The notes beneath the pieces were generated by a model, which made no database searches, was not told the origin of the DNA, and was given only the letters and a program-made list of their open reading frames with translations. Both the position numbers and the translations under genes were made by a program. A DNA stretch of 36,579 nucleotides from a virus (Duplodnaviria > Caudoviricetes), in the IMG/VR virus record IMGVR_UViG_3300032212_000082, positions 1 through 36,579 of that record, one strand, 5' to 3'. Within the stretch, counting starts at the first letter, position 1; every line of letters begins with the position of its first letter. Below are positions 5,665 to 31,822 of the stretch, in pieces.

Positions 5665-6116
5665 TTGATTGGTTAATCGCTTTTTCAGTAAAGCACCAAA
5701 CAGCAATTCAAATAGCTTACGCAGCAGCGGCTACAGCGGCAGTAACAGCCCACGGTCAGCGAGAGCAAGGACGTATGGCAGAAGCCATGTATGAGCGAGA
5801 AGCTAAAGAAGCAGAAGTTGAGGCTTCAGGCCGAGAGCTACAGCGTAGAGAGCAAATTAATCGAAGATTAGCTCAGAATGTTGTAGGCATAGCTGGCTCA
5901 GGAATGAGTGGGGAGGGAACCCCAGCCTCTATTGCATTGGAAGACGCTAAGAAGATCGGAGTATCTGAAAGCATGGAAACATTGTCAGACAGATTAAAGG
6001 CGGCTCAATTAAGGCGAGAAGGCCGCTTAGCCAGAGAAACTGGCAACTTAAACGCCTCATCAACTTTATTGAAGGCTGGGATTGGCGTAGCATCAGGTGG
6101 CGGATACGGTGGCTAG
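5661..6116 (+). CDS. Internal virion (ejection) protein, T7 gp14-like
   Basis: Ala/Gly-rich N-terminus, helical Gln/Glu/Arg segment and a GSGMSGEGTP motif. First of three genes after the nozzle. Confidence 0.65.
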   Translation: MIDWLIAFSVKHQTAIQIAYAAAATAAVTAHGQREQGRMAEAMYEREAKEAEVEASGRELQRREQINRRLAQNVVGIAGSGMSGEGTPASIALEDAKKIGVSESMETLSDRLKAAQLRREGRLARETGNLNASSTLLKAGIGVASGGGYGG

Positions 6117-8145
6117 ACAAACTAAAATAGGCATCTATGGTAGGTACAGGCCAACTGGCCCTGACCAGGGTGAACTAAATAAAAGCAAAGCATTTACTGA
6201 GGCCGTTGCTGGACTTGGGCAACAGGCAACTGACTATCTTAAGCAGAAGCAAAAGGATGAACTATCATCTTATCGAGCCACTGCAAACAATGATACCTTC
6301 TTGAAGCTGGATGAGCTTCAGAGGCAATATAAGGACGATCCTGCCGCTTTTGAGGCTGCGGCTAAGTCATATACTGATACTGTCATAAAAACCGCTCCAG
6401 AGCCTCTCAGGCGCATTCTGACGGGTGATTTCGATACAGCAATCACTAAACGCATTGTTAAGACGAGAGATGCTTACGATCTAAAACACCAACAAGAATT
6501 ATTAGGTGAATGGACTGAAGGCACTCTTGGGATGGAATCCGAAGGGCTTAATAGCATACGCAATGGTGCAGATGCCGCATTAGAGATAAACCGATATGAA
6601 GACCATGTAGACTCCACTGAACTACTAACCCCCGAACAAAAAGCTATTGCAAAATCAAAGTACCGAACTAGAGCGAAAGCGGCTAGTTATATGGGTATGT
6701 TTGATTCTATTGTTGAGAAAGAAGAAGATCCAGAAAGACAGATATTAAGAGCAAAGGCATTAAGAGATGAAATAGCCCAAGCAGATGTCAAAGAACTGTC
6801 ACCCGAACAGAAAGACACTTTCTTGAACAAGATGGATGTTCGCATCAATAAACTAGAATCTAACCTAGCTAAAGATAAAGCTGAGTTAACCCTAGATGCT
6901 AAACGACGAATATCTGACATCGAGATACAGGTGGCGACAGGGAAGATCACACCAGACAACTATGACGAGTTTGCTGACGAGGTTGAGGGTTTATTTATCT
7001 CAGAGGCAATCACTGCACCAAAAAGAACTCAATTGCTAGCCAATGCTTACAATAAGATAAATAACAAATCAAAGGCTGAATTAGATAAGCAAAAGGCTTT
7101 TCAGGATATTGAAGATGTTTTAGGTGGTGTAGATTTTGAAGACGGTGTTCGTCCTGTATTAGATAAGCGATACGTTGACAACCATTTTAATGAAGTATAC
7201 TGGCCGACTATTGAGAGCCTTCCTGAAAGCGATAGAGCTAAAGTAATGGCCGCTTACATTGAAAAGACTCGAATGGTTCCATCTAAAGTCAAAGGCTTAG
7301 TGGACCAATATGTGACATCAGGCGACATATCTCTTATCTCTCAGGCGCAAGATTTAGTCTCTCGTGTGGACACTCTACCGGGAATGCTAAACAAAACCGC
7401 TGATAAAGACACTAAAGCATTTATCGAAACATCAATTAAGTTATCTGAGTATATGCCAGAAGAAGAGGCTATTGCAGAAGCTAAGAGGCGGATAGACCCT
7501 CAAAATGCAAACCTAATGGAAGCTAGGGCGAAGCAACTAAAAGATATCGAGAAAGACGATGACGAGTTCTTTGATGATGGAATTAAGGACGCTCTTGAAG
7601 GCTGGACAACCTCTGATTTAAATCCAAATGGATTTGAGTATGCTGACATAAAGAATGATTACAAAGAGCTTTATACGCATTACTTCACTAGAACAGGCGA
7701 CAAAGATACAGCTAACCGTCTAGCAACTCAGGACTTAAAGGCTTATTGGGCTGATTCTGAATTTGGCTTCATGAGAAACAAGCCTGAACTATTTTACAAT
7801 ATGTCTGGCCCAGAGATTAGGGATGATGTGTACGAAGCCCTAAGACAAGAAGTGTTTGGCGAAGACTTCTCTAAAGGCAGCGTGAAGTTGTTTTCGGATG
7901 ACATTACCGAAAGGGAAGTTAGTTCAGGAAGACCCACTTATCGCGTTATGTACATGCGTGAAAATGGGGACTGGAACTTCATGGAAGACCGCTTCTACCC
8001 AGACGAAGAGAAGGCTAGAAAGGTGAGGCTGACTAGAGCAGAACGAGAATTTCAGATTGAGCAAGAGAATATTCAGCGAGAAAAAAAGGCTGAAGAGCTT
8101 TCTGAAGCAAGAAGCACTGAGAAACGATTTGGGCCGGAGTATTAA
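6097..8145 (+). CDS. Internal virion (ejection) protein, T7 gp15-like
   Basis: 682-aa charged, predicted helical ORF in the second ejection-protein position. GTG start is uncertain. Confidence 0.6.
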   Translation: MADTVARQTKIGIYGRYRPTGPDQGELNKSKAFTEAVAGLGQQATDYLKQKQKDELSSYRATANNDTFLKLDELQRQYKDDPAAFEAAAKSYTDTVIKTAPEPLRRILTGDFDTAITKRIVKTRDAYDLKHQQELLGEWTEGTLGMESEGLNSIRNGADAALEINRYEDHVDSTELLTPEQKAIAKSKYRTRAKAASYMGMFDSIVEKEEDPERQILRAKALRDEIAQADVKELSPEQKDTFLNKMDVRINKLESNLAKDKAELTLDAKRRISDIEIQVATGKITPDNYDEFADEVEGLFISEAITAPKRTQLLANAYNKINNKSKAELDKQKAFQDIEDVLGGVDFEDGVRPVLDKRYVDNHFNEVYWPTIESLPESDRAKVMAAYIEKTRMVPSKVKGLVDQYVTSGDISLISQAQDLVSRVDTLPGMLNKTADKDTKAFIETSIKLSEYMPEEEAIAEAKRRIDPQNANLMEARAKQLKDIEKDDDEFFDDGIKDALEGWTTSDLNPNGFEYADIKNDYKELYTHYFTRTGDKDTANRLATQDLKAYWADSEFGFMRNKPELFYNMSGPEIRDDVYEALRQEVFGEDFSKGSVKLFSDDITEREVSSGRPTYRVMYMRENGDWNFMEDRFYPDEEKARKVRLTRAEREFQIEQENIQREKKAEELSEARSTEKRFGPEY

Positions 8146-11051
8146 TGCCATTTGTTAAACCACAAAAAGAAACTTTCTTAGCAAGCCCTATTATCAGGGA
8201 TATAGCTGAAGAAGAAACGCCAGACTTTTCAGAGGTTTGGGGCGCTATGTGGCGCAATGAAAATACCATTGGCTCGTATATGCACGAGAGGGACTTTGAT
8301 TTAAGCTCGGTTTATGGCGATCCAAATTACAAGGTGTGGGATAAGCTGACAGAAGAAGAAAAGCTGGACGACAGATTTCTCGACCTGGCTCACAATATTT
8401 CTTCAGACAAAGACCTAGAAGAGTCTAGAAGGTATTACACTCAGCGCAAGAAGGACTTAAATACCATTGCAAGTGGCGGGTGGAAGTCACTAGTAGCAGG
8501 GTTAGGTGCAGGGGTATTTGACCCTATCAACCTATTGCCTGTAGGTGGCGCAGCAGTCAAAGCCTATAAGACAGGCAGTTTATTAAAAGGGGCAATGGCT
8601 ACCGCTACTATTGGCGGAGCATCTGTAGGCGCACAAGAGTTCCTTTTGCATAGAACTCAACTAGAAAGAAATATGAACGATACAGCGCTTAATATGTCTA
8701 TGGGCATGTTCCTGTCAGGCGCTATTGGCGCGGCAGCAGCTAAACTATCAAAGTCCCAGATAAAGGCTTTAGAGGATACTTTAGATGTAGATAAGTTGTA
8801 TAGAGCCTCTGCTGAAGTAGAGGAAGCGGCAAGTCTTAGTGCGGCAAAGACAGTGGATGATGTGAATGTTAAAGGCCGTGTTGCTCAAGCTTTATTAAAG
8901 ACTATTGGCTTTGATCCATTATCAAGAACAATTACATCAGTCTCTAACGCCACAAGAAGAATAGCTAATTCGTTAGCAGAGAACCCTATTTGGATGGAGA
9001 CTAAAGGTTATGCAGGTCAGGCAGTTGAGTCATTTGTAAAAACCAATATCAGCAAACACTTAAATCCTGCATTAATGGACTTAGATAATAGTTATAAAGC
9101 CTATGGCGTAGCGGGTGGCAAGTTAGGTAGACGTGACTTTAATAACGCGGTATCTAAAGAATTAAGAAACCCAAACCCAAATGCAGATCCACATGTCAAG
9201 AAAGCGGCTCAATCGTTTCAGAAGAACGTATATGACCCACTAAAGAATGAATTAATAGCGGCTAAAATGCTACCAGAAGATGTGGATGTTGTTACAGCGA
9301 AGAATTACCTGAACCGTGTTTGGAGTCCTGAGAAGATTAAGGCAAACCGAGGTGAGTTTGTTACCAAGGTAGCTCAATGGCTCAAGCTACAGAATGCGCT
9401 AAAGGAAGGCGCAGAAGAGTTATCAGAAGCAGAATTTACTGAAATCGCACGACAGATTGCACGAAGAGTTGAAACGTCTAGGGACGGCATACTTCCTTAT
9501 GACTGGAAGATAGGTGAAGGCTCAAAGGGTGTTAAAGGTACAAGCGCTAGAGGCGCACTAAAAAAACGTGTATTTAATATCCCAGATGACCTAATTGAAG
9601 ACTTCCTAGAGAATGATATTGAAAAGCTAGCTGGTAGATATGTTCGCCAGGTTGTTCCAGATATTCACCTAACTAAAGCATATGGCGATATTGACATGAA
9701 GGCTGAAATATCAGAAATCATGGATGATTGGGACGCCATCATAGCCAAAGAAACAAACGCTAAGAAACAAGAAAAACTGGAAAAACTTAGAGATAGGGAT
9801 AGAAGGGACATTGAGGCAATGCGCGATAGATTGCGTGGCGTATATGGCAATGATAAAGATCCAAACACCCTGTTCAACCGGACATTAAGAGCTACAAGAA
9901 ATCTAAACTATTTGAGATTTATGGGTGGTGTAACAGCGGCATCTATACCAGACATGGCTAGATTGTTTATGGCAGAAGGATTTGTTAACGCATTTCGATT
10001 CGGCCTAAAGCCACTAATGACGAACCTAAAGCAATTTAAAGTATCCGCTAACGAAGCCAAGTTATGGGGTGTTGGTTCAGACACATTAGTAGGTGGGCGC
10101 TCACAGATTATAGCTGACGTAGGGGATGTCACATTAGCTGGAACAAAATTAGAGCGCGGCCTTCAAACCATGTCGGATAAGTTTGGCAAATACAACTTAA
10201 TGGATTATTGGACAGGTGGCATGAAACAGATACACGCTGTCACCATGCAAACATCAGTCTTCAAGAAGTTAGCTAAAGGCACTTACGACAAGCGATTACA
10301 GCGTTTGGGTATTGAAGAAGCTGATGCTATGCGAATGGCTAAACAGGCTGAGAAGTATGGTGGTATGGAAGATGGTGTATTTGTTACTAACTGGAAAAAG
10401 TGGGATGACCAAGAATTAGCGCAGATGTGGGGCAACGCACTAAGAAAAGAATCAGACAGAGTTATTGTTGTGCCAGGTCAAGAGAAGCCATTGTTTATGT
10501 CTACTGAAATGGGCAAGACACTGTTTCAATTTAGGTCTTTCATGATGGCTGCAACTCAAAGAATGGCTATAGCGGCTATTCAAGGACAAGATAAGAATAT
10601 GCTCGGTGGTTTCGCCATGCTAACTGGGTTAGGGATGATGTCCTACGCATTTAAGCAATGGGACGCTAAAAGACCAATTACTGATGACATGTCTGCACTT
10701 GTTATGGAAGGAATTGATAGGTCTGGTGCAACAGGCATGATTATGGAAATCAACAATACTTTAGAAAAAGCGACAGATAACCACATGGGGTTAAGACCAT
10801 TATTAGGTATAAGCACCCCTGCATCAAGGTTTGCGTCAAGAAATAAATTAGAAAACTTGCTAGGGCCAACTTTTGGATCTGCATTATCCACAGTAGGTAC
10901 AGTGACGGGGGGTCTTGGCTCCGCTTTAAGTGAAGGTGAATGGAAAGACAGCGACACAAGAGCGTTAAGAAGACTGCTTCCATACCAGAATCTGTCGCTA
11001 ATTAGGCAAGGATTTGATACAATAGAAGAATCTGTAAATGAGGCATTATAA
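8145..11051 (+). CDS. Large internal virion (ejection) protein, T7 gp16-like
   Basis: 968-aa ORF with a hydrophobic Gly/Ala segment (DPINLLPVGG...) and motifs NYLNRVWS, KTLFQFRSFMMAA and LRRLLPYQNL, just before the tail fibre. Confidence 0.72.
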   Translation: MPFVKPQKETFLASPIIRDIAEEETPDFSEVWGAMWRNENTIGSYMHERDFDLSSVYGDPNYKVWDKLTEEEKLDDRFLDLAHNISSDKDLEESRRYYTQRKKDLNTIASGGWKSLVAGLGAGVFDPINLLPVGGAAVKAYKTGSLLKGAMATATIGGASVGAQEFLLHRTQLERNMNDTALNMSMGMFLSGAIGAAAAKLSKSQIKALEDTLDVDKLYRASAEVEEAASLSAAKTVDDVNVKGRVAQALLKTIGFDPLSRTITSVSNATRRIANSLAENPIWMETKGYAGQAVESFVKTNISKHLNPALMDLDNSYKAYGVAGGKLGRRDFNNAVSKELRNPNPNADPHVKKAAQSFQKNVYDPLKNELIAAKMLPEDVDVVTAKNYLNRVWSPEKIKANRGEFVTKVAQWLKLQNALKEGAEELSEAEFTEIARQIARRVETSRDGILPYDWKIGEGSKGVKGTSARGALKKRVFNIPDDLIEDFLENDIEKLAGRYVRQVVPDIHLTKAYGDIDMKAEISEIMDDWDAIIAKETNAKKQEKLEKLRDRDRRDIEAMRDRLRGVYGNDKDPNTLFNRTLRATRNLNYLRFMGGVTAASIPDMARLFMAEGFVNAFRFGLKPLMTNLKQFKVSANEAKLWGVGSDTLVGGRSQIIADVGDVTLAGTKLERGLQTMSDKFGKYNLMDYWTGGMKQIHAVTMQTSVFKKLAKGTYDKRLQRLGIEEADAMRMAKQAEKYGGMEDGVFVTNWKKWDDQELAQMWGNALRKESDRVIVVPGQEKPLFMSTEMGKTLFQFRSFMMAATQRMAIAAIQGQDKNMLGGFAMLTGLGMMSYAFKQWDAKRPITDDMSALVMEGIDRSGATGMIMEINNTLEKATDNHMGLRPLLGISTPASRFASRNKLENLLGPTFGSALSTVGTVTGGLGSALSEGEWKDSDTRALRRLLPYQNLSLIRQGFDTIEESVNEAL

Positions 11052-14772: not shown

Positions 14773-15012
14773 ATGGCAACATTAACAGACGGGGATGTCT
14801 TCATAGTCCCAAACACGGGGATATACTCGGTTGCATTCGTAATGAGTGCTGGCACAGCTAAGATAGAACTATCCTTAGACAAGGGTGTTTCTTATACTGA
14901 TATGTCAGATTCAAGTGTATCAGCAACAACTACATTCAATGTTGAGGCAACCCAAGGCAGCCTACTAAGAGCGGCACTTACTGGCGATGCCACTATGCAG
15001 ATAGATGGCTAA
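14773..15012 (+). CDS. Small beta-sandwich virion protein (possible spike/fibre base)
   Basis: 79 aa with alternating beta-strand pattern (GTAKIELSLDKGVSYTD...LRAALTG). SD AGGAG. TAATG-coupled to the next gene. Confidence 0.55.
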   Translation: MATLTDGDVFIVPNTGIYSVAFVMSAGTAKIELSLDKGVSYTDMSDSSVSATTTFNVEATQGSLLRAALTGDATMQIDG

Positions 15013-16484
15013 TGGCAACTGCTAACGACCTCAACATATCTGGTTGGACTGTGCAGAGTTCTACCCCTCTAAGAGATGGTAGTTTCCCTGCATCCGTTCG
15101 AACTGAATCCAGTTCATACGCACCAAGTGCAACAGCAAGAATAATCTATGTTGATTCAACACTTGGAAATGATGGTACAGGCGCACCAACTAATCTTGCA
15201 GCACAACCAGACCCGTTCATCCCTGATGGGAACGAACTACCATATCAGTCCATTTCAGCCGCATCATCTCAATTAAGGAGTGGTGAAGGCGACTGGATTC
15301 TATTTAAGAGAGGAGAGTCGTTCGCAGGCTCGCTAGGTTTAGCGGCATCCACAGATGGGTCATCTGCGGTATTGCCAACTCTGATTGGCTATTATGGCTC
15401 AACAGGCGATAGGCCTGTCATTTCAAATGGCGCAGGAACTGTTGCTAATGTGACTAGTGGGTCAGCCAATTATATAACTTTCTATGGATTAAAAATCTAT
15501 TGTGCAGAGCGTGACCCTGATAACGTTGGTTTCGTCTTAGGCAATGAGTCGTCTGGGGCTTATGGTATCCGCTATGTAGGATCTGGTGGTGGCTCAGATA
15601 TAGTTGTTGATGACTGCGATATATCTTACTTCAAGGATGGCATCGTCATCCAGACAACAGGCACAGCATATCAGAATATAACAGTCAAAAACTCTATCAT
15701 CCACGACCAACTTTATGACCTCAGTTCAGGCTACTCATCTGGGATATTCTTATCAGGGGTTGAGGGTTCAATTCGCGTTAATGATAACTTCTGGTATCAC
15801 AACGGATGGCATGAAAATGGCTCTCTGTCTGGCTGTCACAGACACCAATACAACCACAATGTTTACTTCCAACACAACAATAACGGAGCAGATGCAGACT
15901 TCAAGAGAAATGTATCACTAGAGGGTGCTAGTCATGGTTGTCAAGGGCGCATGGGTGGAACATATGAAGATAACTTATATGCTCGATGCGCTGTGGGTTA
16001 CTCAAAGGCAGGGGTAGATGTTCCTTTTGATAATGGAGTCACAGGCATTTCACTAAAGCAGGTGATTATTGAGGGCATGAGAATGGATGCCACTGACCCT
16101 CAAAACGCAGGAACTACAACGGCTGTATACGGGGTTTATATTGTTGGTTATACAGAAGATAACGGTGGTGAGGCGGTTGTACAGGACACTATTGTAGCAA
16201 ACAGATTAGAGTCTGGGACAAATGTAGGAATAACGCAACAAGGTTTCGCAACATACACGAACAACATCGTATTCAACTGGAACGCAACAGAAGATGCGCC
16301 AGATACGTTCACAGACGCAAGCAGAAACGTAGACAGCTATATGGTCAGCGAGGGATTGGGGACAACATACGATGACTTTGTTTCATGGCATTTAGCTCGA
16401 CCAACAGGTACAACTCATGGCCTGTACTCAGCACCCAATGTAAACGACTATATCCGAGAAGGATTTGACTTGGTGGTATCATAA
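15012..16484 (+). CDS. Right-handed parallel beta-helix protein, copy 1 (putative polysaccharide depolymerase)
   Basis: Motifs IIYVDSTLGNDG, DWILFKRGESF, NITVKNSIIHD, NFWYHNGW and HNVYFQ, with Asn/Gly ladders. Paralogue of 17287-18747. Confidence 0.75.
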   Translation: MATANDLNISGWTVQSSTPLRDGSFPASVRTESSSYAPSATARIIYVDSTLGNDGTGAPTNLAAQPDPFIPDGNELPYQSISAASSQLRSGEGDWILFKRGESFAGSLGLAASTDGSSAVLPTLIGYYGSTGDRPVISNGAGTVANVTSGSANYITFYGLKIYCAERDPDNVGFVLGNESSGAYGIRYVGSGGGSDIVVDDCDISYFKDGIVIQTTGTAYQNITVKNSIIHDQLYDLSSGYSSGIFLSGVEGSIRVNDNFWYHNGWHENGSLSGCHRHQYNHNVYFQHNNNGADADFKRNVSLEGASHGCQGRMGGTYEDNLYARCAVGYSKAGVDVPFDNGVTGISLKQVIIEGMRMDATDPQNAGTTTAVYGVYIVGYTEDNGGEAVVQDTIVANRLESGTNVGITQQGFATYTNNIVFNWNATEDAPDTFTDASRNVDSYMVSEGLGTTYDDFVSWHLARPTGTTHGLYSAPNVNDYIREGFDLVVS

Positions 16485-17287
16485 TGACAACTCTATTAGT
16501 ACAGGAAAAAGCGGCAACTAACAACAACTCGAACCCTGCTACAGTTACACTTGATGCACCTGCAACAGCAGGAAATATACTGTTCTGTGTTGTAGCGTCA
16601 AATCACAATGCGCTTACATCATTCACTGCGCCTACTGGGTTCACCATCCCGACAGATGGGCAGATGCAAACTGCTAGCAATCAGGCAGGAATAGCCATTG
16701 CTTACAAGGAAGCGGTTGGTGGTGAAACGGCTATTAGTTGGACTTCGGACAGAGATCCAGATAACTACTCATGGGATGTTTGGGTTGGGGAGTATTCAGG
16801 CTTAACAGGAGCTACCCCTCATGTTGCGGTTATTAACAACACATCAGGATTCTCGACAGTTCAGACGCTATCAACAGGCACAAGCGCAGCAACAACGGCT
16901 GCAAACACTTTCTCTATAGCGGCATGGGTAACAGATGCCGACAACCCAACAGTAACATCAGCACTCTACTCTAATAGCTTCACAGAGGAGCATCAAGACA
17001 CTACTGGCACAACCTTGTTTGTTGCTACAAAATCTCACACAACGACAGGAACAGTAGAGACTACGCTGACCCATGATGGCGCGGCAGAAAACATGGGGTC
17101 ATTACTACTGACATGGGAAGAGAGTGTTGTTACAGCCTCAGTAGACGACATTAACACTAATGAGATTATCTTAGACGCTCAACAGAATAACACTTACGAA
17201 GTCTCAGGCTTCTCAGGAAGCATCACAGGCATTACATTAACCAACGGCACACGCGCTAGCGCTATGACGGGGATTACGGAGGACTGA
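16484..17287 (+). CDS. Thr/Ala-rich beta-sandwich virion-type protein, copy 1
   Basis: Motifs ATAGNILFCVV, PTGFT, AIAYK and WVGEYSGLTGATP are shared with 18744-19862. TAATG coupling. Confidence 0.65.
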   Translation: MTTLLVQEKAATNNNSNPATVTLDAPATAGNILFCVVASNHNALTSFTAPTGFTIPTDGQMQTASNQAGIAIAYKEAVGGETAISWTSDRDPDNYSWDVWVGEYSGLTGATPHVAVINNTSGFSTVQTLSTGTSAATTAANTFSIAAWVTDADNPTVTSALYSNSFTEEHQDTTGTTLFVATKSHTTTGTVETTLTHDGAAENMGSLLLTWEESVVTASVDDINTNEIILDAQQNNTYEVSGFSGSITGITLTNGTRASAMTGITED

Positions 17288-18747
17288 TGGCTACTGCTAA
17301 TGACTTAAATATTAGTACATGGACTGTTCAGGGCAGTAGTCCGATTAGGGATGGTGAGTTTGCTTCAGGCGAGAGAACATCCTTCCCACCTAGTTATTTG
17401 CCTGCTGCTACATCACGCATTATGTATGTGTCAGACTCAGGCAATGATGGTACAGGTGCGTATACGGATTTAGCTACTGTAGTAACGCCATTTGAACCAC
17501 AAGCAGCAGTCAATGAATACGCAACCATCGAGGCTGCATTAACTCAGGCAAGGGATGGTCAAGGCGATTGGGTTTTATTGAAGCGTGGTGATAGCTGGAC
17601 TATTACAGCGTCCTTATCAGGCGCATTACTCAATGGATTATCATCAACAAATACGTTTTTATTAGGATGCTATGGGTCATCAGGTGCTAGGCCGTTAGTT
17701 CAGATTGATGACTTGCCTGTAGTGAATTTTAACGGCAATAACTACAACTATTGGACTTGTTACGGAGTAGAGTTTTATGCCTATACCCGCGACCCTAACA
17801 ACGTATCTTATGACAATGGAGCTAGTGGCCCAGATTGTTTGCGGCTTGTGGGTGGTGGTGATTACCTAACAGTGGACGACTGCAAGATAGGATTCTTTTC
17901 AGAGTCCATTAATGTTGATGCTTTTGATATTTATAACGCATCAAACGTCACAATAAAGAATAACATCCTTCATAACTCATGGCAGTTATACGATGGTGCT
18001 AGTTATTGTTCAGGCGTTTTCTGTGAGGGTGTCGTGGGGCTAACCGTTGAGGATAACGTGTTTTACAACAACGGTTGGAATGCTGATGTTCCCGAAGTTC
18101 AGGCGCACAGATACACACGCAACCACAACATCTATATTCAACATACCTGTGATGGCACAGACCTGTCAGTACAACGCAATATCTCACTAGACGCTTCTAG
18201 CCACGGCCTTTATGTTCGTCCAGGTGGACAAGTAATAGATAACTTTGTAGCTCGTTGCCCTGTAGGGATAGAGATTGGCTATGATGGCTTTCCTTTAGCT
18301 TCAGGCGTGAATGCACTAGGCGAGGACAATGTTGTCATTGAGGGCGTTGACATGGACTTGTTAGACGCTAATCCACAAACATCAGGCTCTATATGGGGCA
18401 TCAATATCCCTATAGACGCAGAGAACAATGGCGGAACGGTCACGCTTACTACTAACGTAGTAGCTAATCGAATTGACTCAGATGTTGACAGGGGTATTAA
18501 CGACCCATCGGATATAGCAACCAAGACAGGCAATGTGGTTTATGAATGGTGGGCATCTCAAGACCAGACTGATGTTAGTTGGCCTCATCCTGACAGTGTT
18601 ATCACAGACTACATGACATCTATTGGCGCAACAGCCACATACACTTATTTTGTTAGTGAACTATTAACCAGAGAGGTAGGTGAAATCAAACCACTTTATC
18701 AAGCTCCTAGAATTAATAGTTACTTTAGAGCGGGGTTTAATTTATGA
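17287..18747 (+). CDS. Right-handed parallel beta-helix protein, copy 2 (putative polysaccharide depolymerase)
   Basis: Starts MATANDLNIS like copy 1. Motifs DWVLLKRGDSW, NVTIKNNILHN, NVFYNNGW, HNIYIQ and ASSHGL. Confidence 0.75.
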   Translation: MATANDLNISTWTVQGSSPIRDGEFASGERTSFPPSYLPAATSRIMYVSDSGNDGTGAYTDLATVVTPFEPQAAVNEYATIEAALTQARDGQGDWVLLKRGDSWTITASLSGALLNGLSSTNTFLLGCYGSSGARPLVQIDDLPVVNFNGNNYNYWTCYGVEFYAYTRDPNNVSYDNGASGPDCLRLVGGGDYLTVDDCKIGFFSESINVDAFDIYNASNVTIKNNILHNSWQLYDGASYCSGVFCEGVVGLTVEDNVFYNNGWNADVPEVQAHRYTRNHNIYIQHTCDGTDLSVQRNISLDASSHGLYVRPGGQVIDNFVARCPVGIEIGYDGFPLASGVNALGEDNVVIEGVDMDLLDANPQTSGSIWGINIPIDAENNGGTVTLTTNVVANRIDSDVDRGINDPSDIATKTGNVVYEWWASQDQTDVSWPHPDSVITDYMTSIGATATYTYFVSELLTREVGEIKPLYQAPRINSYFRAGFNL

Positions 18748-21429: not shown

Positions 21430-21567
21430 TTAGACTTCATCGTTCTTCTCCCAGCTAAATCTAACAACCCGGCAGTACCTGGCGATACCAAGAACAATCG
21501 CGGTTAGCAATAAAGGAACCCCAAGTACAGCAAACAACAAACACCAAATCTCGTAACAATCGCTCAT
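21430..21567 (-). CDS. Small single-pass membrane protein (45 aa, not in ORF track)
   Basis: MSDCYEIWCLLFAVLGVPLLLTAIVLGIARYCRVVRFSWEKNDEV. The ATG overlaps the phosphoesterase stop (TAATG). Confidence 0.55.
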   Translation of the reverse strand: MSDCYEIWCLLFAVLGVPLLLTAIVLGIARYCRVVRFSWEKNDEV

Positions 21568-22945: not shown

Positions 22946-23134
22946 TTAATAGAGAGTGGGATCGTATCTTAATCGACCACGAGTGTGACGTTGCAACTTC
23001 ATAGCCCGAAGTTCTGGGATAACTCTACCCCACCTGGACACGGCAGATTGACTAATGCCTAATATCTCTGCAACAGTAGAGCAAGGATTATTCACTTTAG
23101 TCTTATAATAAGACAGAACATCTTCTTTATACAT
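22946..23134 (-). CDS. cro: Cro/YdaS-like HTH regulator (start revised to ATG 23134)
   Basis: MYKEDVLSYY...VAEILGISQSAVSRWGRVIPELRAMKLQRHTRGRLRYDPTLY is a typical Cro-family pattern. SD GGAGA. Confidence 0.82.
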   Translation of the reverse strand: MYKEDVLSYYKTKVNNPCSTVAEILGISQSAVSRWGRVIPELRAMKLQRHTRGRLRYDPTLY

Positions 23135-23153
23135 AAATATCTCCATTTATGAC

Positions 23154-23206
23154 TTGCATTAATGATAAAGTAAGCGTATTATACCTTTAGTTAATGAGAG
23201 ATTCAA
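23154..23206. promoter_or_regulatory. Overlapping divergent sigma70 promoters
   Basis: Plus strand: TTGCAT (23154-23159), 17 bp, TATTAT (23177-23182). Minus strand: TTGAAT (23206-23201), 17 bp, TATAAT (23183-23178). The two -10 boxes overlap. Confidence 0.78.
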
Positions 23207-23225
23207 TTATAAGGAGGTTGAATTT

Positions 23226-23642
23226 ATGTCATATCTAGTGTGTAGTTTTTATCTACCCGTCAAAAATGCCCAGTCTGTTATCAATGGAGAGGGCAATACA
23301 TTTTTCTTAAATATCAACGGCTTATCGTTACAATGCGCCTTTTTATATTCAAATTGGCAGCGTTACATTAGTGACTTTAATCATAAGACAGAAGGGGATT
23401 ACCAGTGCCTTGCGTACATTTGCCCATCTATCTTGGATATTATCTGGTCTGTTAAGTCAACAGCCACAGCGAAGGGTAGCTCCCCGTCTGTTTGCATCGA
23501 TGTTGATATGGCTGAAGTGCAAAGCCCGGTAATACCTTACGATTTAACGCTCACTGATTGCGAGAATAACAGAGAGGTTCTATGCGAAATCATGACAAAT
23601 GGGATTGGCTCTATAGCATCCTCTTGGTTGTCTGCTTCTTAA
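23226..23642 (+). CDS. Hypothetical protein, first gene of the rightward operon
   Basis: Strong SD AAGGAGGT and a 138-aa ORF. No family recognised. Confidence 0.6.
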   Translation: MSYLVCSFYLPVKNAQSVINGEGNTFFLNINGLSLQCAFLYSNWQRYISDFNHKTEGDYQCLAYICPSILDIIWSVKSTATAKGSSPSVCIDVDMAEVQSPVIPYDLTLTDCENNREVLCEIMTNGIGSIASSWLSAS

Positions 23643-23658
23643 TAATAGGAATAGTGCT

Positions 23659-24261
23659 ATGAAATTATCACAAAAACTAACTGACATTCAGTCAGACCTG
23701 AAAGCCCCAAAAGACCAGACCAATAAATTTGGCGGGTATAAGTACAGAAACATTGAGGCCATCCAGGAATCAGTCAAGCCCTTACTAAAAGAGCATGGAT
23801 TAGTATTAACATTCTCTGACTCTATTGAGGTCTATGGTGACAGGGTTTACGTCAAAGCAACAGCTATGCTAACTGATGGGATAGAGCAAGTAACCGCATC
23901 AGCCTTTGCGAGAGAGCCTTTAAATAGAAAAGGAATGGATGAGAGTCAGATAACTGGCGCAGCTTCTACCTATGCTCGTAAGTATGCCGCAGGAGGCTTG
24001 TTCTTATTAGACGACACCAAGGATGCTGACTCAATGGACTCAAGTGAAGAGGCGCGTAAGTCTACATCTAAGGGCGTTTCTGCACCTAAGAGTAAGCAGG
24101 AGTACACTGACAAGGACTTCCAGAAGAACTTGCCCGCATGGACTACGCTAATTGAATCAGGCTCACACAGCCCTGACACTATTATCGGCATGGTTAGTTC
24201 CAAAGGATACTTTATGAATCCTCAACACGTCAAAACGCTTAAAGCAATAAAGGTGAGCTAA
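23659..24261 (+). CDS. erf: ERF-family single-strand annealing protein
   Basis: Motifs IQSDLKAPKDQTNKFGGYKYRNIEAI, AFARE and KGMDESQITGAASTYARKYAAGGLFLLDDTKDAD. Confidence 0.9.
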   Translation: MKLSQKLTDIQSDLKAPKDQTNKFGGYKYRNIEAIQESVKPLLKEHGLVLTFSDSIEVYGDRVYVKATAMLTDGIEQVTASAFAREPLNRKGMDESQITGAASTYARKYAAGGLFLLDDTKDADSMDSSEEARKSTSKGVSAPKSKQEYTDKDFQKNLPAWTTLIESGSHSPDTIIGMVSSKGYFMNPQHVKTLKAIKVS

Positions 24262-24500
24262 TGGATAAGTTAGGACAAATAGTTGACGGCTTTGAGGAAA
24301 TTATTGAAGAACTCGAAGCGAGCCACAACGACGTTGATACCTTTTGTATGGCATTGTTATTCGCAGTGTTTGAAGAGAAGGGGGTCAATCTAATGGAGGT
24401 CAATGGGGGTGAGCTAGAAGTACAGTTTGGCCCAGAGTTTTTTAAAATCACAGTCGAAAAGACGGATGAACCGAGCTATGGAGGACAGTATGTCCACTGA
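24261..24500 (+). CDS. Small acidic hypothetical protein
   Basis: 79 aa, very Glu/Asp-rich, TAATG-coupled to erf. Confidence 0.6.
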   Translation: MDKLGQIVDGFEEIIEELEASHNDVDTFCMALLFAVFEEKGVNLMEVNGGELEVQFGPEFFKITVEKTDEPSYGGQYVH

Positions 24501-25386
24501 GTTTTTAGACTTGGAACAAGGGTCACAGGAATGGCAAGACCTTAGAGGGCAGTATTACACAGCCTCTGAAGCAGACGCCATGATGGGGACATCTAAGTAT
24601 AAATCACGACACGACTTATTGGTAGAGAAGAAGACCGGCATCAAGCCAGTGGTATCTGAATACCTTCAAGGCATTTTTGAGCAGGGCCACCACAACGAAG
24701 AGTGGGCTAGGGCTAGAGTTGAACAGGGTCTATTTGGATTTGCACTTGACCCTTTAACCGCTATTAAGGATAATCGCTTTCTGTCCTCGTTGGATGGGAT
24801 TAACCTGGTAAACGAAGTAGTATGGGAATGCAAGACTTGGAACAAACACCTCGCTGAACACGTATTAGAAGGTGTCATCCCGGAGTCCCATAAATGGCAG
24901 TTGGTTCACCAGTGTTATACAACAGGTATAGATAAAGTCCTGTTTTCTATTGCAGATGAAGAGAAAGAGTTGTTAGAATCTGCATGGTTCCATCCAACAG
25001 AGGACGATTTTGCTCAGTTAATTAGCGGTTGGAATGACTTTGAGGGTGAATTAGCGCACTTTGAGGTATCTAACCCGTTAGATGACATGGACTTCAATGA
25101 AGCTAGGGATGAGGCACTGAGACTGGCTGATGAGAAGCTGACTGAATACTTAGTTATGCGCTCATTATGGGTTGAGTACGACTTCAACCAGGCTATCAAG
25201 GGTAAGCGTAACATCAGAACGGTTCAAGCGGCAATTGATGAACATATGGCAGCATCTAAAGCAAATGCAAAACCATCTATTCATGTGGAGTTGGCTATGT
25301 GGGCCAACAGGCACGACATTAAACTAACAGGCAAGATTTTAGCCGACTTAGATCCTATATTAATCAAATACGGAGTAAAACTATGA
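24490..25386 (+). CDS. YqaJ/lambda-exonuclease family protein (start revised to ATG 24490)
   Basis: Motifs EQGSQEWQDLR..YTASEA, GHHNE..AR, SSLDG, WECK and WQLVHQ. SD GGAGGA precedes ATG 24490. Confidence 0.88.
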   Translation: MSTEFLDLEQGSQEWQDLRGQYYTASEADAMMGTSKYKSRHDLLVEKKTGIKPVVSEYLQGIFEQGHHNEEWARARVEQGLFGFALDPLTAIKDNRFLSSLDGINLVNEVVWECKTWNKHLAEHVLEGVIPESHKWQLVHQCYTTGIDKVLFSIADEEKELLESAWFHPTEDDFAQLISGWNDFEGELAHFEVSNPLDDMDFNEARDEALRLADEKLTEYLVMRSLWVEYDFNQAIKGKRNIRTVQAAIDEHMAASKANAKPSIHVELAMWANRHDIKLTGKILADLDPILIKYGVKL

Positions 25387-25790
25387 ACATATTACACGCA
25401 TCAGGGAACTTAGGTGGCGACATGGAAATCGCCTACACTAAAGGCGGGACAGCTATTGGCACAGTATCTATGGCGGTTACTCATGGCTTTGGTGACAAGC
25501 AAAAGACTATGTGGGTTAAGTGCAAGTTATTTGGCAAGCAAGCTGAGTCATTGACACCGTATCTAACCAAGGGTAGCAAGCCCGCATTTGTTGGACGATT
25601 CTATATTGACGAGTGGACCGGGGATGACGGCATTAAGAGAACAACCCCAACACTTGAAGTAATGGACGTAGACCTACCAAGAAGAGAGGGCCCGGCAGTA
25701 GGGAAGCAGCACCACGGCTTTAAGAATGAAGCCACTAACAACGACGGTAGCTACAAAGAAGCAGTAGTAGAAGACGATATACCGTTCTAA
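25383..25790 (+). CDS. ssb: Single-stranded DNA-binding protein
   Basis: Motifs GNLGGD, WVKCKLFGKQAE and YLTKGS, with an acidic C-terminal DDIPF. Confidence 0.93.
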   Translation: MNILHASGNLGGDMEIAYTKGGTAIGTVSMAVTHGFGDKQKTMWVKCKLFGKQAESLTPYLTKGSKPAFVGRFYIDEWTGDDGIKRTTPTLEVMDVDLPRREGPAVGKQHHGFKNEATNNDGSYKEAVVEDDIPF

Positions 25791-25878
25791 TTTCACTTGG
25801 AGATAGGTGTCTCATATCACCTTCCTTGCGGGTCTGCCCCACCTGTTCTCCGAAACGGGGCATTAAAGGAGAAAGACA

Positions 25879-26436
25879 ATGAGTAATACAGAAAAAATAA
25901 TAGATGACAAAGAGACTTGCGATTGGACTCTGGATAACAGCGATTGGTACTGCTACGAAACATCTTGTCAACAATGTTTTGTAATGAGTGACGGAGACCT
26001 AAAAGACAATGGCATAAACTATTGCTGTTACTGCGGCAAGCCCGTGAGTGAAATCAAAGAGGGGGCAACCATGACCAAATTAAAAAAATATGACCCAAAA
26101 TATAGAATAGGTCAAAAAGTAAAATTTAAGACAAGTGGCGCAGAAGCTTATGTTTTAGGCGTTCAGTGCGCCCAATCTAGCGACCAATGGGAAGTGGTTT
26201 ATTTGTTGTCTGATGGCCCCGTCCACCCTAGCACCACCAACACTGCGATCAATCAAAAATTTCCAGAAGATAATTTACTTAGTGAAACAGAATATCATTT
26301 GTATGTTACAAAAAAAGCTATAGATCACCTAAAGTCATTCGGATTCCTTATTGAATGCAACGGGATTCAGCTTGATGACAAAAACTATACAGGCTGCTCT
26401 GGAAGTCACGGGGATTGCCCTGTTTGCGGAAACTAA
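25879..26436 (+). CDS. Cys-rich hypothetical protein, probably two fused small genes
   Basis: N-terminal zinc-ribbon-like part (C..W..YETSC..YCCYCGKP). An internal SD GAGGGGG and ATG 26071 start an SH3/YorP-like KYRIGQKVKF part. C-terminal CSGSHGDCPVC. Confidence 0.65.
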   Translation: MSNTEKIIDDKETCDWTLDNSDWYCYETSCQQCFVMSDGDLKDNGINYCCYCGKPVSEIKEGATMTKLKKYDPKYRIGQKVKFKTSGAEAYVLGVQCAQSSDQWEVVYLLSDGPVHPSTTNTAINQKFPEDNLLSETEYHLYVTKKAIDHLKSFGFLIECNGIQLDDKNYTGCSGSHGDCPVCGN

Positions 26437-26448
26437 AGAAGAAAGACA

Positions 26449-27288
26449 ATGACTAAAGCATTTTACTTTGCGACTAACGATAAAAAACTTCGTTATGGCG
26501 ATAACAGACAGATAAGGGTCGGCACAACACACACTGTTGACTACGAACCCATGCTTTGTAGGCAGGGACTACACGCTTCACGGAGACTAATTGACGCGCT
26601 ATCCTATGCGCCCGGCCACTGGCTTTATTGGGTTGAGTTGGGCGGGGAGACAATCGAAGGCTCAGACAAGATGGCTGCTACATCAAGAAAGTATTTAGCT
26701 GACTTTAATGCTGAAAGACTGCTTAGAAAGTTTGCCAGAAAGCAGGCTTTGTTGAACATTGAAAAGATTAAGCCTTACTGCGGTAAGGACGACTACCACT
26801 TAATATTAAAGTGGCTGAACACTGGCGATAAGCGTTATCAGGCTGCTGCTCGCTATGCTGCCTCTACTGCTCGCTATACTGCTAACTCTACTACTCACTC
26901 TACTGCTCGCTCTGCCGCTCACTCTGCTGCTCACTGTGCTTCTTACGATGCTGCTGACGCTGCTTACGATACTGGTTGCGCTGCTGCCTCTGCTGCTCGT
27001 TCTGCTGCTGACGCTGCTGCTGACGCTGCTGCTGCCTCTACTGCTCGCTCTGCCGCTCACTCTGCTGCTCACTGTGCTGGTTGCGCTGCTTACGCTGCTT
27101 ACGATACTGGTTGCGCTGCTAACTCTACTACTCACTCTGCTGCTTACGATGCTGCTGACGCTGCTCGTTCTGCTGCTCACTCTGCTGCAAACAAGATGCT
27201 AACCGACATGGTAAGAGAGGCTACTGGATGGGATATAGGAGAAGATGATAGATACTACCTTATTGAGAAGGAGAAAGACAATGAATAA
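26449..27288 (+). CDS. Phage protein with a globular N-terminal domain and an Ala-rich repeat tract
   Basis: The N-terminal LCRQGLHAS...DALSYAPG...VELGG...DK domain is a type often seen in phage accessory regions. It is followed by ~115 aa of (x)SAA/DAA repeats. Confidence 0.75.
   Translation: MTKAFYFATNDKKLRYGDNRQIRVGTTHTVDYEPMLCRQGLHASRRLIDALSYAPGHWLYWVELGGETIEGSDKMAATSRKYLADFNAERLLRKFARKQALLNIEKIKPYCGKDDYHLILKWLNTGDKRYQAAARYAASTARYTANSTTHSTARSAAHSAAHCASYDAADAAYDTGCAAASAARSAADAAADAAAASTARSAAHSAAHCAGCAAYAAYDTGCAANSTTHSAAYDAADAARSAAHSAANKMLTDMVREATGWDIGEDDRYYLIEKEKDNE
26842..27186 (+). repeat. Low-complexity GCT-rich coding repeat mosaic
   Basis: Exact internal repeats: 43 bp (26898-26940 = 27036-27078), 29 bp (26957-26985 = 27092-27120), 21 bp (26881-26901 = 27118-27138). 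Confidence 0.92.
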
Positions 27289-27649
27289 CCAAGAAATAAA
27301 CCTAGCGATTGCTAAGTTGGTGCATCCAGAAGCAAGAAAAATTCAGCCAGACGCTATTGATTTTTGCAAGGATGGTGAGGGGGTTTTAGTAAGCCTTGCA
27401 TATGGTAGTGCAAGTCTAGTTGACTACTGCAACAACTGGAACGACTTAATGCCGTTGGTGGTTGAGCATAAGATAGCGTTAATGCCAGAGTATTTTGACG
27501 ATATAGTCATGACGGATAATTGGGAAGCGGAATACGAAATTATACCAAATGGATATCAGTGCAGTGTAAACAAAGACCCACAACGCGCCCTTGCTGAGTG
27601 CCTATTGAAAGTGTTGGAGAGCAAGCTAAGAGAGGGTGAAGATGATTGA
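27281..27649 (+). CDS. NinX/ABA-sandwich-like protein, copy 1 (start revised to ATG 27281)
   Basis: EINLAIAKL...DYCNNWNDLMPLVVEHKI...DPQRALAECLLKVL. The ATG lies within a junction repeat. Confidence 0.72.
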   Translation: MNNQEINLAIAKLVHPEARKIQPDAIDFCKDGEGVLVSLAYGSASLVDYCNNWNDLMPLVVEHKIALMPEYFDDIVMTDNWEAEYEIIPNGYQCSVNKDPQRALAECLLKVLESKLREGEDD

Positions 27650-27896
27650 TACATCATTAGATTACGCAATTCACGCTGTTAATGGTCTAAGTAAAAAAGA
27701 TATGCAGAATGTAGTTACGCATATCAATGAGGTTTTAGATATGGAGCAAGCCACGACAATTCAGAAGTTAGAAGCCAGAGTGCAGGAATTGGAGTTTGCA
27801 ATCCAAGGCCATGACAACGGCAATTATGACTGGGGTGATGTGCTTGCTGTGTTAGAAAGAGGCAAAGCCAAACTAAGAGAGGGTGAAGATGACTAA
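27642..27896 (+). CDS. Hypothetical protein with a short coiled coil
   Basis: ATG in the GAGGGTGAAGATGA junction. Contains IQKLEARVQELE. Ends KLREGEDD like the preceding gene. Confidence 0.65.
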   Translation: MIDTSLDYAIHAVNGLSKKDMQNVVTHINEVLDMEQATTIQKLEARVQELEFAIQGHDNGNYDWGDVLAVLERGKAKLREGEDD

Positions 27897-28218
27897 CGCA
27901 GAACTAAATCTAGCAATCGCTAGACTGCTTTATCCAGATGCGGAAATAGTTTTAAGTATAGAGTCGCCACTATTGGGGGCGGATAAGTACGTATTAAAAC
28001 ATGACGACAGATGTTATCAACACATCCCAAATTACAGCAACAACTGGAACGACTTAATGCCATTGGTGGTTGAGCATAAGATTACCCTGCAATGGGATAA
28101 CGAGGATATGCTTTGGGATGTTTATGGTGTTCGCACAGAATGTAAGGCAAGCAAAGACCCACAACTAGCACTAGCTAAATGCGTATTGGCTGTATTGCAG
28201 GAGAAAGACAATGACTGA
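27889..28218 (+). CDS. NinX/ABA-sandwich-like protein, copy 2
   Basis: ELNLAIARL...PNYSNNWNDLMPLVVEHKI...DPQLALAKCVLAVL. Shares 45/46 bp with copy 1 (27429-27474 vs 28037-28082). Confidence 0.72.
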   Translation: MTNAELNLAIARLLYPDAEIVLSIESPLLGADKYVLKHDDRCYQHIPNYSNNWNDLMPLVVEHKITLQWDNEDMLWDVYGVRTECKASKDPQLALAKCVLAVLQEKDND

Positions 28219-28519
28219 CCCTATAAAAGAACTAATACAGCTTGTGTTAGACCAGACTTGCCCAGACCCTGTAAGCAAGATAGAGCTTAAGTATGACATT
28301 TGCTTTACACAATCCGCAGATGAATTGATGGATGATATTGCTTTAAGTCGGACAGTGAAGTTAGAAGACAGAATAGCGGAGTTGGAAGAAAAGCTGCAAG
28401 AGAGCCAAATGTTTGACGAGATTGTCACGAATCAAAGTATTCGGAGCTATTTAAAAATCAACGATATATCAGACGATGATAAATACTACCTTATTGAGAA
28501 GGGGAAAGACGATGAGTGA
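28211..28519 (+). CDS. Hypothetical protein with an RIAELE coiled coil
   Basis: ATG in a junction repeat. Contains KLEDRIAELEEKL. Its C-terminus DDKYYLIEKGKDDE mirrors that of 26449-27288. Confidence 0.65.
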   Translation: MTDPIKELIQLVLDQTCPDPVSKIELKYDICFTQSADELMDDIALSRTVKLEDRIAELEEKLQESQMFDEIVTNQSIRSYLKINDISDDDKYYLIEKGKDDE

Positions 28520-28678
28520 TATACCGCGATACATGGATTGGGACAAGCCTGTTGAGCCTGACAAACGAGGCAAGTAAGTCACATACGATGACTGCATAGC
28601 AGACAAGAAAGCCAATAAACTAGAAATCCAGATGCTTAACGATTGGTGTCTGAAATTGAAGAACTGCAAAAGGGGTGA
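28512..28678 (+). pseudogene. Degraded small gene (premature ochre plus probable 1-nt deletion)
   Basis: MSDIPRYMDWDKPVEPDKRGK*VTYDDCIAD... has TAA at 28575-28577. A -1 shift near 28640 gives ...QMLNRLVSEIEELQKG* ending at TGA 28676-28678. Confidence 0.5.
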
Positions 28679-28682
28679 AGCA

Positions 28683-28850
28683 ATGATTGATTGGTTGAGA
28701 CGCAGACTAACCGCAAAGAGACTTGATTGCTCATTTGTAGATGTTGTAACAGGCAAAGAGGTTTTCAACTATGTTGACTACGATGGTCAAAAGTTTCTTG
28801 CTAATTACAACCATTGGTTTTTTAGGGTTTATTTTGGAGGAAAGCAGTGA
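28683..28850 (+). CDS. Hypothetical protein (55 aa, start revised to ATG 28683)
   Basis: Preceded by AGGGGTGAAGCAATGA, a variant of the second junction motif. Begins MIDWLRRRLTAK. Confidence 0.55.
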   Translation: MIDWLRRRLTAKRLDCSFVDVVTGKEVFNYVDYDGQKFLANYNHWFFRVYFGGKQ

Positions 28851-28924
28851 AACATAATAAATTTTATGAAGGCATAAAGAATTTTCTATGGGCATTGTTT
28901 AGACTGGAGAAAGACAATGACTGA
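28847..28924 (+). CDS. Mini-protein (25 aa, not in ORF track)
   Basis: SD GGAGG, GTGA overlap. MKHNKFYEGIKNFLWALFRLEKDND ends in the junction repeat. Confidence 0.45.
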   Translation: MKHNKFYEGIKNFLWALFRLEKDND

Positions 28925-29201
28925 CACATCAAACAGCGAAATGATACGGTTATCTGACTTGGTCAAAAAGCAATCAGCAAGAATAGCAGAGCTGGAGGAG
29001 AAGTTAAAGCCAGCTCGCCACCTGAAGTTATATGTAGACGACTTTAACGCGCTCGATGTCTGGGAAGAGATATGCAACGTAGTACGGGTTGATTATGAGA
29101 TGGTAGACGAAATAGATATCAACTTTCATACAGGCAACATTAACCCGTATAGAGAAGGGGAGTATTCACCAGAATATAAGCGGGAGAAAGACAATGAGTG
29201 A
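28917..29201 (+). CDS. Hypothetical protein with an RIAELE coiled coil
   Basis: ATG in a junction repeat. Contains ARIAELEEKLK. Ends REKDNE. Confidence 0.65.
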   Translation: MTDTSNSEMIRLSDLVKKQSARIAELEEKLKPARHLKLYVDDFNALDVWEEICNVVRVDYEMVDEIDINFHTGNINPYREGEYSPEYKREKDNE

Positions 29202-29376
29202 AGAATACATAACAGACCAAGGTTTTAGTTCATTAGATATAGAGACTTGTGATGAGTGTCATAGATGTTGGTACTACGAAGAAGTCACTGAATATCGAGG
29301 TGAGAAGATATGCAAGTCGTGCATGGAAGAAATCAAAGCCGACATAATAAGGGATGAGAGAAAAGACAATGGTTGA
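29194..29376 (+). CDS. Small zinc-finger-like protein
   Basis: CDEC...ICKSC pattern. ATG in a junction repeat. Confidence 0.65.
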   Translation: MSEEYITDQGFSSLDIETCDECHRCWYYEEVTEYRGEKICKSCMEEIKADIIRDERKDNG

Positions 29377-29437
29377 GTTTCACTATTGGATGTTGTTCGC
29401 TGTCCTAGTGTTGTTGTTATTCTACCGAAGGAAGTGA
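29369..29437 (+). CDS. 22-aa hydrophobic membrane peptide (not in ORF track)
   Basis: MVEFHYWMLFAVLVLLLFYRRK. The ATG is in the last junction-repeat variant, directly before the endolysin. Confidence 0.5.
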   Translation: MVEFHYWMLFAVLVLLLFYRRK

Positions 29438-31776: not shown

Positions 31777-31804
31777 TACGTATATCGAATTATTTAGTGT
31801 GTCG

Positions 31805-31822
31805 TGTTATACTACATGTAGC
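31805..31822 (+). promoter_or_regulatory. Extended -10 promoter for the terminase operon with an overlapping palindromic site
   Basis: TGT-TATACT at 31805-31813. ACTACATGTAGC at 31811-31822 is the exact reverse complement of 1307-1318. Confidence 0.6.

Follow-up and report, generated by a model that had tools for sequence, protein, structure and literature searches.

A short stop/start gene joint repeated in a small-gene row of a tailed phage: a probable homology patch for the exchange of accessory genes

We analyzed the window, a 36,579-nt stretch of DNA from a tailed virus (Caudoviricetes; IMG/VR record IMGVR_UViG_3300032212_000082), in which the genes of a small-gene row on the plus strand (25879-29437) are connected by short repeated sequences. 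The most frequent of these, motif A or joint A, carries the ribosome-binding site and start of one gene and, in most copies, the end of the gene before it. We propose that this gene joint of ~19 nt acts as a homology patch for general phage recombination, by which whole accessory genes are now and then exchanged, gained, or lost, and we assign a probability of about 0.6 to this explanation.

Copies and layout of the joints

An earlier sequence-only reading of the window reported a 15-mer, GGAGAAAGACAATGA, that occurs perfectly five times (25868, 27270, 28200, 28906, and 29183), with variants at 26438, 28501, and 29358. All eight copies were recovered, and the variants carried 1, 2, and 4 mismatches, respectively. 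The genome-wide count with ≤3 mismatches was 10, compared with a mean of 1.31 in 100 shuffles, and none of the shuffles reached 10. Of the remaining three of the 10 matches, the one at 7548 has 2 mismatches and lies inside the gene at 6097-8145; the other two have 3 mismatches each and are located at 21437, on the minus strand, and at 25372, where ssb starts.

Every copy of motif A in the array supplied a gene with its Shine-Dalgarno (SD) site and ATG, and six of the eight copies (27270, 28200, 28501, 28906, 29183, and 29358) also encoded the end of the upstream open reading frame (ORF); both properties agree with the sequence-only reading. The copy at 28906 closes an upstream 25-aa GTG micro-ORF that starts at 28847, and the copies at 25868 and 26438 end no upstream ORF. 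The joint is longer than the 15-mer, being ~19 nt and running past the ATG, and the exact identity shared between A copies is 15-20 nt. A stop was present at +6 to +8 in 11 of the 12 row starts and in 7 of the 36 other starts (Fisher p 1.4e-5). In six A copies and in both copies of a second joint, B, described below, this stop is also the end of the upstream ORF.

Motif A heads 8 of the 12 gene starts of the row, has one orientation, and lies on the ribosome site of non-structural genes only. The motif was not equally common elsewhere, since none of the 36 other gene starts carried it exactly and one carried it within 3 mismatches. Identical 11-nt leaders were found in 11/66 pairs among the 12 row starts compared with 0/630 pairs among the 36 other starts. 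The conservation of the spacer, which had been noticed from the sequence, is beyond chance: at least five identical 7-nt spacers among 12 starts were obtained in 0/200,000 simulations with the spacer composition of the genome, and in 4/200,000 trials of the same simulation at 60% A.

We searched the joints for structure and for transcription signals. When seven joints were folded as DNA, six gave z values of -0.40 to 0.66 and one gave -2.23 with hairpins outside or edging the motif, and no common fold was observed. An Rfam scan of the joints gave no match. The search for sigma-70 promoters gave 21 promoter-like sites compared with 19.8 in shuffles, only one of which (9/12) overlaps a joint, and a terminator scan gave nothing specific to the joints.

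Joint B was found at four row starts, namely 27642 and 27889, where the pair shares 20 nt exactly, and in looser form at 26071 and 28683. In regards to motif A, two unrelated genes terminate in the same 53 nt at 89% identity (the long A joints, containing the copies at 27270 and 28501; longest exact run, 20 nt). The sharing of 20-53 nt of 3′ end between unrelated genes indicates copying rather than convergence. Nearly all of 120 listed NinX-like proteins, the family of two genes of the row, share a C-terminal helix and then diverge; the EKDND end was present in 2 of them, one of which is the window's own. Moreover, the single close homologue of the gene at 28917 matches residues 31-91 and then has a different end, without the joint-encoded tail. 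Judged from these alignments, the tail is part of the joint and not of the protein families.

Exact motif A in the viral_contigs collection was mostly single, with a second copy (≤2 mismatches) in 11/121 loci and in 16/60 loci of another scan. We inspected ten two-copy viral loci. Motif A lies ahead of separated genes in five of them (L294, L244, L283, L286, and L015), a row of small genes connected by related joints is found in L016, and the remaining loci are single overlaps. The row of L016, an unrelated virus contig, occupies 15-2509 on the minus strand and consists of genes of 50-200 aa, with joints that read EQD-stop, EKDNE-stop, and EQDND-stop.

Exchange of genes at the joints

Two sequencing runs contained the region: X1 (0.99 of the sampled words), which is possibly the source sample and was not counted as independent, and X2 (0.05), which belongs to a separate study. 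Two array genes are ~99% identical in X2 and stand behind different DNA. Record 8 of X2 covers 27626-27791 (166 nt) and record 11 covers 27872-28052, each with 2 differences; the two matches begin inside joint B, and other DNA precedes them. Only the last 31 of the 417 nt of record 9 match, exactly, at joint B, and in record 10 the 3′ half of NinX-like gene 2 runs into joint B, whereas the window has joint A there. These results indicate that near-identical genes occur in other contexts and switch at joint B. Record 6 of X1, which is 742 nt long and has a depth of 5.6 versus ~29, matches by its last 38 nt alone, at the long A joint, and a further contig, in which a NinX-like start is joined to 21 nt at joint A, is too short to weigh. 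An assembly artefact was ruled out, as the X1 contigs tile the region without differences among the matches listed.

The relatives of the phage by terminase carry a joint of their own. Among 80 loci with 69-73% TerL identity, only 16 had at least two joints in view, many of the others having little upstream DNA; the 16 carry at least two copies of a different joint that reads EVTA-stop with an ATGA overlap. L202, a 99.9% duplicate of L197, and L140, which is the window itself, were left out of the counts, and 15 relative arrays with 71-73% TerL identity were kept. In these arrays, a single ORF exactly fills the stretch between two joints in 23 of the 24 inner segments, 26 gene families form 33 distinct neighbour pairs in 38 joints, and each of the nine families that recur is found beside more than one neighbour. 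Alignment ends fell ≤5 nt from a joint in 54/67 cases at ≥70% identity and in 34/38 at ≥85% (expected, 17.8%). An alignment end was present at 29/36 joint starts compared with 24/61 other starts of the same regions (nominal Fisher p 1e-4), which indicates that gene boundaries are breakpoints in general and that joints are so about twice as often. In L171 and L189, both flanking genes are shared (97% and 90%) and one 188-nt gene differs, with the change inside the motif, joint to joint.

A third joint type, in which NHKE-stop is followed by MM, was found on the plus strand of three NinX-bearing phages of another type (L131, 4488-5550; L132, 4056-5688; L129, 2826-3510), with up to seven copies per genome, and in L129 and L131 one gene lies joint to joint between different neighbours. 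Among 30 NinX-like loci, look-alikes of motif A were present in three (1-2 each, 1-2 mismatches) and joint B in none; the genome_contigs collection gave one weak NinX-like match, which was not used. The sequence-only reading had placed gene gain and loss at the joints, and genes are indeed gained, lost, and reordered at joint B (in X2) and at the relatives' own joint.

Genes of the row and their setting

The row is headed by an exact copy of joint A (25868-25886, copy 1), whose stop closes no annotated gene. A 185-aa ORF follows (25879-26436) with a second ATG at 26071, at a B-like joint. A B-like joint is in frame with the upstream sequence twice in the row: in this ORF, and in 28512-28850, where a lone stop (28575) intervenes. 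The 185-aa ORF probably represents two genes fused in frame at the B-like joint. Directly past its stop lies copy 2 (26438-26456, 1 mismatch), which starts a DUF7666-domain protein (26449-27288; PF24703, E 5.4e-7). This protein contains an Ala-rich tract of imperfect 12-nt units (26822-27198), opposite to which a Leu-rich ORF is read, and terminates in the long A joint (27232-27288), which includes the exact copy 3 at 27270 and of which 53 nt are 89% like 28463-28515.

NinX-like gene 1 (27281-27649; phrog_444, E 6e-12) terminates in joint B copy 1 (27622-27649), which shares 20 exact nt with copy 2 and is a switch point in X2. PF10765 was matched by 4/40 aligned homologues of this gene, but not by the window protein itself. 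A toxin domain was weakly matched in Pfam (E 0.0036) by 2/40 homologues of the family but not by the protein of the window, and we regarded this as a chance match. The 84-aa gene behind it (27642-27896) has a coiled-coil-like module and a homologue in locus L149, with no further match in the protein database, and terminates in joint B copy 2 (27869-27896), where X2 records 9, 10, and 11 meet. NinX-like gene 2 (27889-28218), a paralogue that is 39-40% identical to gene 1, terminates in joint A copy 4 (28200-28218, exact). A 50-nt block of the two paralogues (27425-27474 and 28033-28082) is 96% alike, compared with ~77-94% for the same stretch in relatives; gene conversion is a possible explanation of these figures, but the block is the most conserved motif of the family.

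Next, a 102-aa gene (28211-28519) terminates in the second long A joint (28463-28519), which includes copy 5 (28501, 2 mismatches) and at which X1 record 6 ends behind other DNA. From this joint starts a 21-aa ORF, the frame of which runs past the stop at 28575 into a 55-aa gene that begins at the B-like joint 28683 (28512-28850 overall). The 25-aa GTG micro-ORF (28847-28924) terminates in copy 6 (28906, exact), a 94-aa gene with a coiled-coil-like start and a domain (28917-29201) in copy 7 (29183, exact), and a 60-aa Cys-rich gene (29194-29376) in copy 8 (29358, 4 mismatches). The last member is a 22-aa hydrophobic micro-ORF (29369-29437), ahead of genes for an M23 peptidase and a holin. All of these features are on the plus strand.

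The coiled-coil-like module (LEARVQELE, LEDRIAELEE, or ARIAELEE) recurs in three unrelated genes of the row, at 27764-27793, 28357-28386, and 28968-29013. Directly after the module, similarity to the gene at 27642 is lost both in record 8 of X2 and in the homologue from L149, and the homologue of the gene at 28917 is without the module. The module may be a second, in-gene swap point.

The window, a whole phage genome, has ends that overlap by 185 nt in self-comparison. Small podoviruses, among them Methylophilales phage MEP301 and Vibrio phage CKB-S2, have capsid proteins with 32-42% identity to that of the window, and Pelagibacter phages account for 14/69 capsid matches. The control region is lambdoid-like: its minus strand carries cro, ninB, and ninG together with genes for a phosphoesterase and a replication protein, and its plus strand carries erf, the exonuclease gene, and ssb. 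On the plus strand, the row is preceded by genes for an ERF single-strand annealing protein (23659-24261; PF04404, E 2.7e-37; phrog_155), a YqaJ/RecE-like exonuclease (24466-25386; PF09588, E 4.1e-11; phrog_7655), and SSB (25383-25790; PF00436), the start of which is the 3-mismatch look-alike of motif A at 25372. The recombination trio seen in the sequence is thus borne out by Pfam and PHROG matches, and GC content did not mark the row as foreign.

In agreement with the sequence-only reading, no integrase was found in the genome, with no match to PF00589 (the control matched 14/14) or PF00239. ERF was absent from all five EVTA-joint relatives and all four NinX-bearing records searched. A Sak-like annealase and an exonuclease were present in both of the two EVTA-joint relatives examined, on the strand opposite to the row. 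A repeated-start row downstream of erf was found in none of 50 erf loci, these being the loci out of 80 that had at least 5 kb downstream, many of them near-duplicates; two loci with at least three repeats were rejected, as both carry 18-nt tandem repeats that are not gene starts. On these results, an annealase is a plausible agent of exchange, but the adjacency to erf is ordinary operon layout.

Several features lie apart from the row. Within 22946-23642, a cro-like gene adjoins a family-less 138-aa ORF, where a repressor might be expected, in this genome without an integrase. A GP88-family gene (PF17338; 30910-31569, minus strand) belongs to a small leftward operon ahead of the small terminase, and a 47% homologue of it was found in L246 and L257, both of which also have an exact A joint. 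Two ~490-aa genes of the tail region (15012-16484 and 17287-18747) are alike at their start (MATANDLNIS...) and are probably a duplicated fibre or accessory module. Furthermore, we observed a 26-nt inverted pair (81%) at 1307-1332 and 31797-31822, intergenic or near-intergenic, and a 24-nt pair at 10600 and 34423.

Explanations of the joints and comparison with known systems

In the explanation we favour, the SD, a fixed spacer, the next ATG, and the previous stop are packed together as one unit, the overlap would couple translation, and a gene between two joints would thus be expressed without a promoter of its own. Termination-reinitiation usually couples the translation of genes that overlap, as found for 13 of 14 pairs tested, which had ATGA or TGATG overlaps (PMC6728339); at most of the joints here, the overlap is 8 nt. 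Genes change neighbours inside such joints, as seen at joint B of the row and at the equivalent joint of the terminase relatives. The crossovers are likely to be made by a Rad52-type annealase with an exonuclease (ERF here, Sak in the relatives), mostly between co-infecting phages; the Erf and Exo proteins of phage D3 perform as well as Red in recombining DNA that is identical or 78% identical (PMC3945230). Because a crossover inside a joint keeps both neighbours intact and regenerates the joint, recombinants would survive and the joint would spread along the row. Neither a dedicated recombinase nor a structured site would be required. We infer all three steps, namely coupling at the joints, homologous annealase-driven crossovers, and spread of the joint by the recombinants.

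Several observations weigh against this explanation. Exact identity extends over 15-20 bases between A copies and over 20 in the B and long A pairs, below the minimal pairing segment reported for Red-beta (23-27 bp; 31-34 for RecA; PMC3945230), so that crossovers should be rare. Selection at gene boundaries explains part of the breakpoint signal, because the 24/61 non-joint starts are also breakpoints, and the p-values are nominal because the genomes are related and blastn ends extend through the shared motif. No close relative with a motif A row was found: an exonuclease search of viral_contigs, blastn in 50,697 phage records, a search for joint B rows in viral or genome contigs, and a search for the long A joint each gave none. 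Most of the swap evidence consequently concerns joint B or the joint of another clade, and little of it bears directly on motif A itself. Length and depth are low in the X2 contigs (85-488 nt and 2.5-5.4, respectively), and no A-to-A deletion joint was present among the X1 matches listed, contigs being a form in which rare variants are dropped. Finally, unrelated phages also carry single EKDN(E/D) overlaps, and part of the motif can therefore arise by convergence.

The most serious rival, which we regard as unlikely, is that the joints are a passive relic. They would have been left by tandem duplication and by selection for a good SD and overlap; exchange would be illegitimate, the sequence would not guide crossovers, only events at gene boundaries would survive, and the shared sequence would be a record of history. 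The two NinX-like paralogues represent duplication within the row and fit this account, as do the breakpoints at non-joint starts, the identity below the Red-beta minimum, and the single EKDN(E/D) overlaps. In the same direction, an in-frame stop accompanied 33/123 exact motif A matches of the first viral scan, and most mosaic joints lack a boundary sequence according to PMC3029335. However, a relic does not readily explain the same tail on unrelated genes, the doubled breakpoint frequency at joint starts, the change inside the motif between L171 and L189, or the identical spacers, which are not expected from composition.

The sequence-only reading had offered a shared regulator site as its alternative. 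An RNA-binding protein or nuclease, of phage or host, would then switch the early genes together through the SD and spacer, in the way shown for RegB of phage T4 and suggested for the SAS repeats; we consider this quite unlikely. The position of motif A on the ribosome site, in one orientation and at non-structural genes only, resembles the SAS repeats (PMC3203893), and two A copies are kept where no gene ends. The first 11 bases of motif A fit the RegB consensus GGAGRAYARAA at 8/11 positions but miss A8, which is among the three most conserved positions as given in PMC1702504, and a search for RegB (PF10715), run without a matching positive control, gave no match in the genome. A control site is hard to reconcile with two different joints in one row and quite different joints in related phages, and it does not account for the in-frame stop, for gene ends that are shared over 53 nt, or for the neighbour switching. 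It explains less than the gene-swapping joint does.

The claim of an integron-like array stood in so far as whole, translationally coupled genes are swapped at joints, and was not supported in its tie to erf-yqaJ-ssb as a dedicated system. Such a system, with a site-specific enzyme or the trio as a fixed partner moving cassettes at high frequency, would suit the place of the row directly behind erf-exo-ssb, the single-gene segments of the relatives, and several nearby ORFs without a family, but is very improbable given that no tyrosine or serine recombinase was found (controls matched), that the joints share no common hairpin and six of seven fold no better than shuffles, that no such row was found at the 50 erf loci, that the rows of the relatives are on the other strand from the annealase, and that the X1 matches listed include no deletion joints.

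The gene-swapping joint has counterparts in known systems. The PeSL cassettes of the T4-type phages RB49 and phi1 are repeats that end in an SD and start before small non-essential genes; recombination between the repeats shuffles genes without an integrase, and the authors themselves draw the comparison to integrons (PMC2839356). Each PeSL cassette has a sigma-70 promoter and a stem-loop and is its own transcription unit, and mini-circles were shown (PMC2839356). The joint, in contrast, is ~19 nt, has neither promoter nor stem-loop, and lies inside coding sequence at a stop/start overlap. Gene gain and loss at the repeat, as in PeSL, is seen at joint B (in X2) and at the relatives' joint, and is weak for motif A.

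The SAS repeats, found in mycobacteriophages of Cluster K and Microbacterium phages of Cluster EF, are likewise asymmetric ribosome-site repeats, conserved beyond 16S pairing, in one orientation, at ATG starts, and before non-structural genes only (PMC3203893, PMC7302621). They mostly follow intergenic gaps >50 bp, are often paired with the inverted-repeat ESAS, and have a proposed translational role (PMC3203893, PMC7302621). In contrast, six of the eight A copies overlap an upstream ORF end and only that at 25868 follows a gap >50 bp; the joint includes the ATG and a stop and marks exchange points, and motif A is unlike the 13-bp SAS consensus given for Cluster K (PMC3203893).

The lambdoid linker or boundary-sequence model, in which short homologies at gene boundaries guide general recombination (PMC2839356, PMC3029335), is also close, and the control region of the phage, with cro, ninB, ninG, erf, exo, and ssb, is itself lambdoid-like. 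A short sequence shared at mosaic boundaries, as in that model, is present at the joints here. Unlike the lambdoid linkers, one linker is repeated many times per row and is itself a translation signal, so that any gene would fit any slot. Integrons and CALINs carry an attC-type folded single-strand site at each junction. Their arrays in phages are, like the row, series of single-gene units that change order (PMC9892861); here, neither an integrase nor an attC-like hairpin was found, and there was no sign of site-specific recombination. An SD/start/stop joint acting as an exchange seam was not described in the literature searched, which consisted mostly of freely accessible papers without their supplements. 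These comparisons indicate that the joint is a minimal linker for the modular shuffling of phages, a variant of PeSL, SAS, and boundary sequences.

Mosaic joints may arise because short linkers guide recombination or because selection filters joins made at random, and which of the two holds is a long-standing question. A joint of 15-20 nt that doubles as a translation signal is the smallest possible linker, and the two models become separable with it because the spacer can be changed without touching the SD, start, or stop. If the explanation is true, SAS-like repeats would gain a recombination role, and rows of candidate host-interaction genes would be marked by the joint. A broader idea, which we advance tentatively and hold to be doubtful, is that tailed phages keep lineage-specific, self-propagating stop/SD/start adaptors of 15-25 nt, that the phages sharing an adaptor form a gene-exchange pool, and that Rad52-type annealases recombine them below the accepted homology minimum. 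If so, adaptor pools would amount to a cassette system without integrase or promoter, by which whole accessory operons are put together, and rows with two adaptor types, such as that of the window, would be hybrids that bridge two pools.

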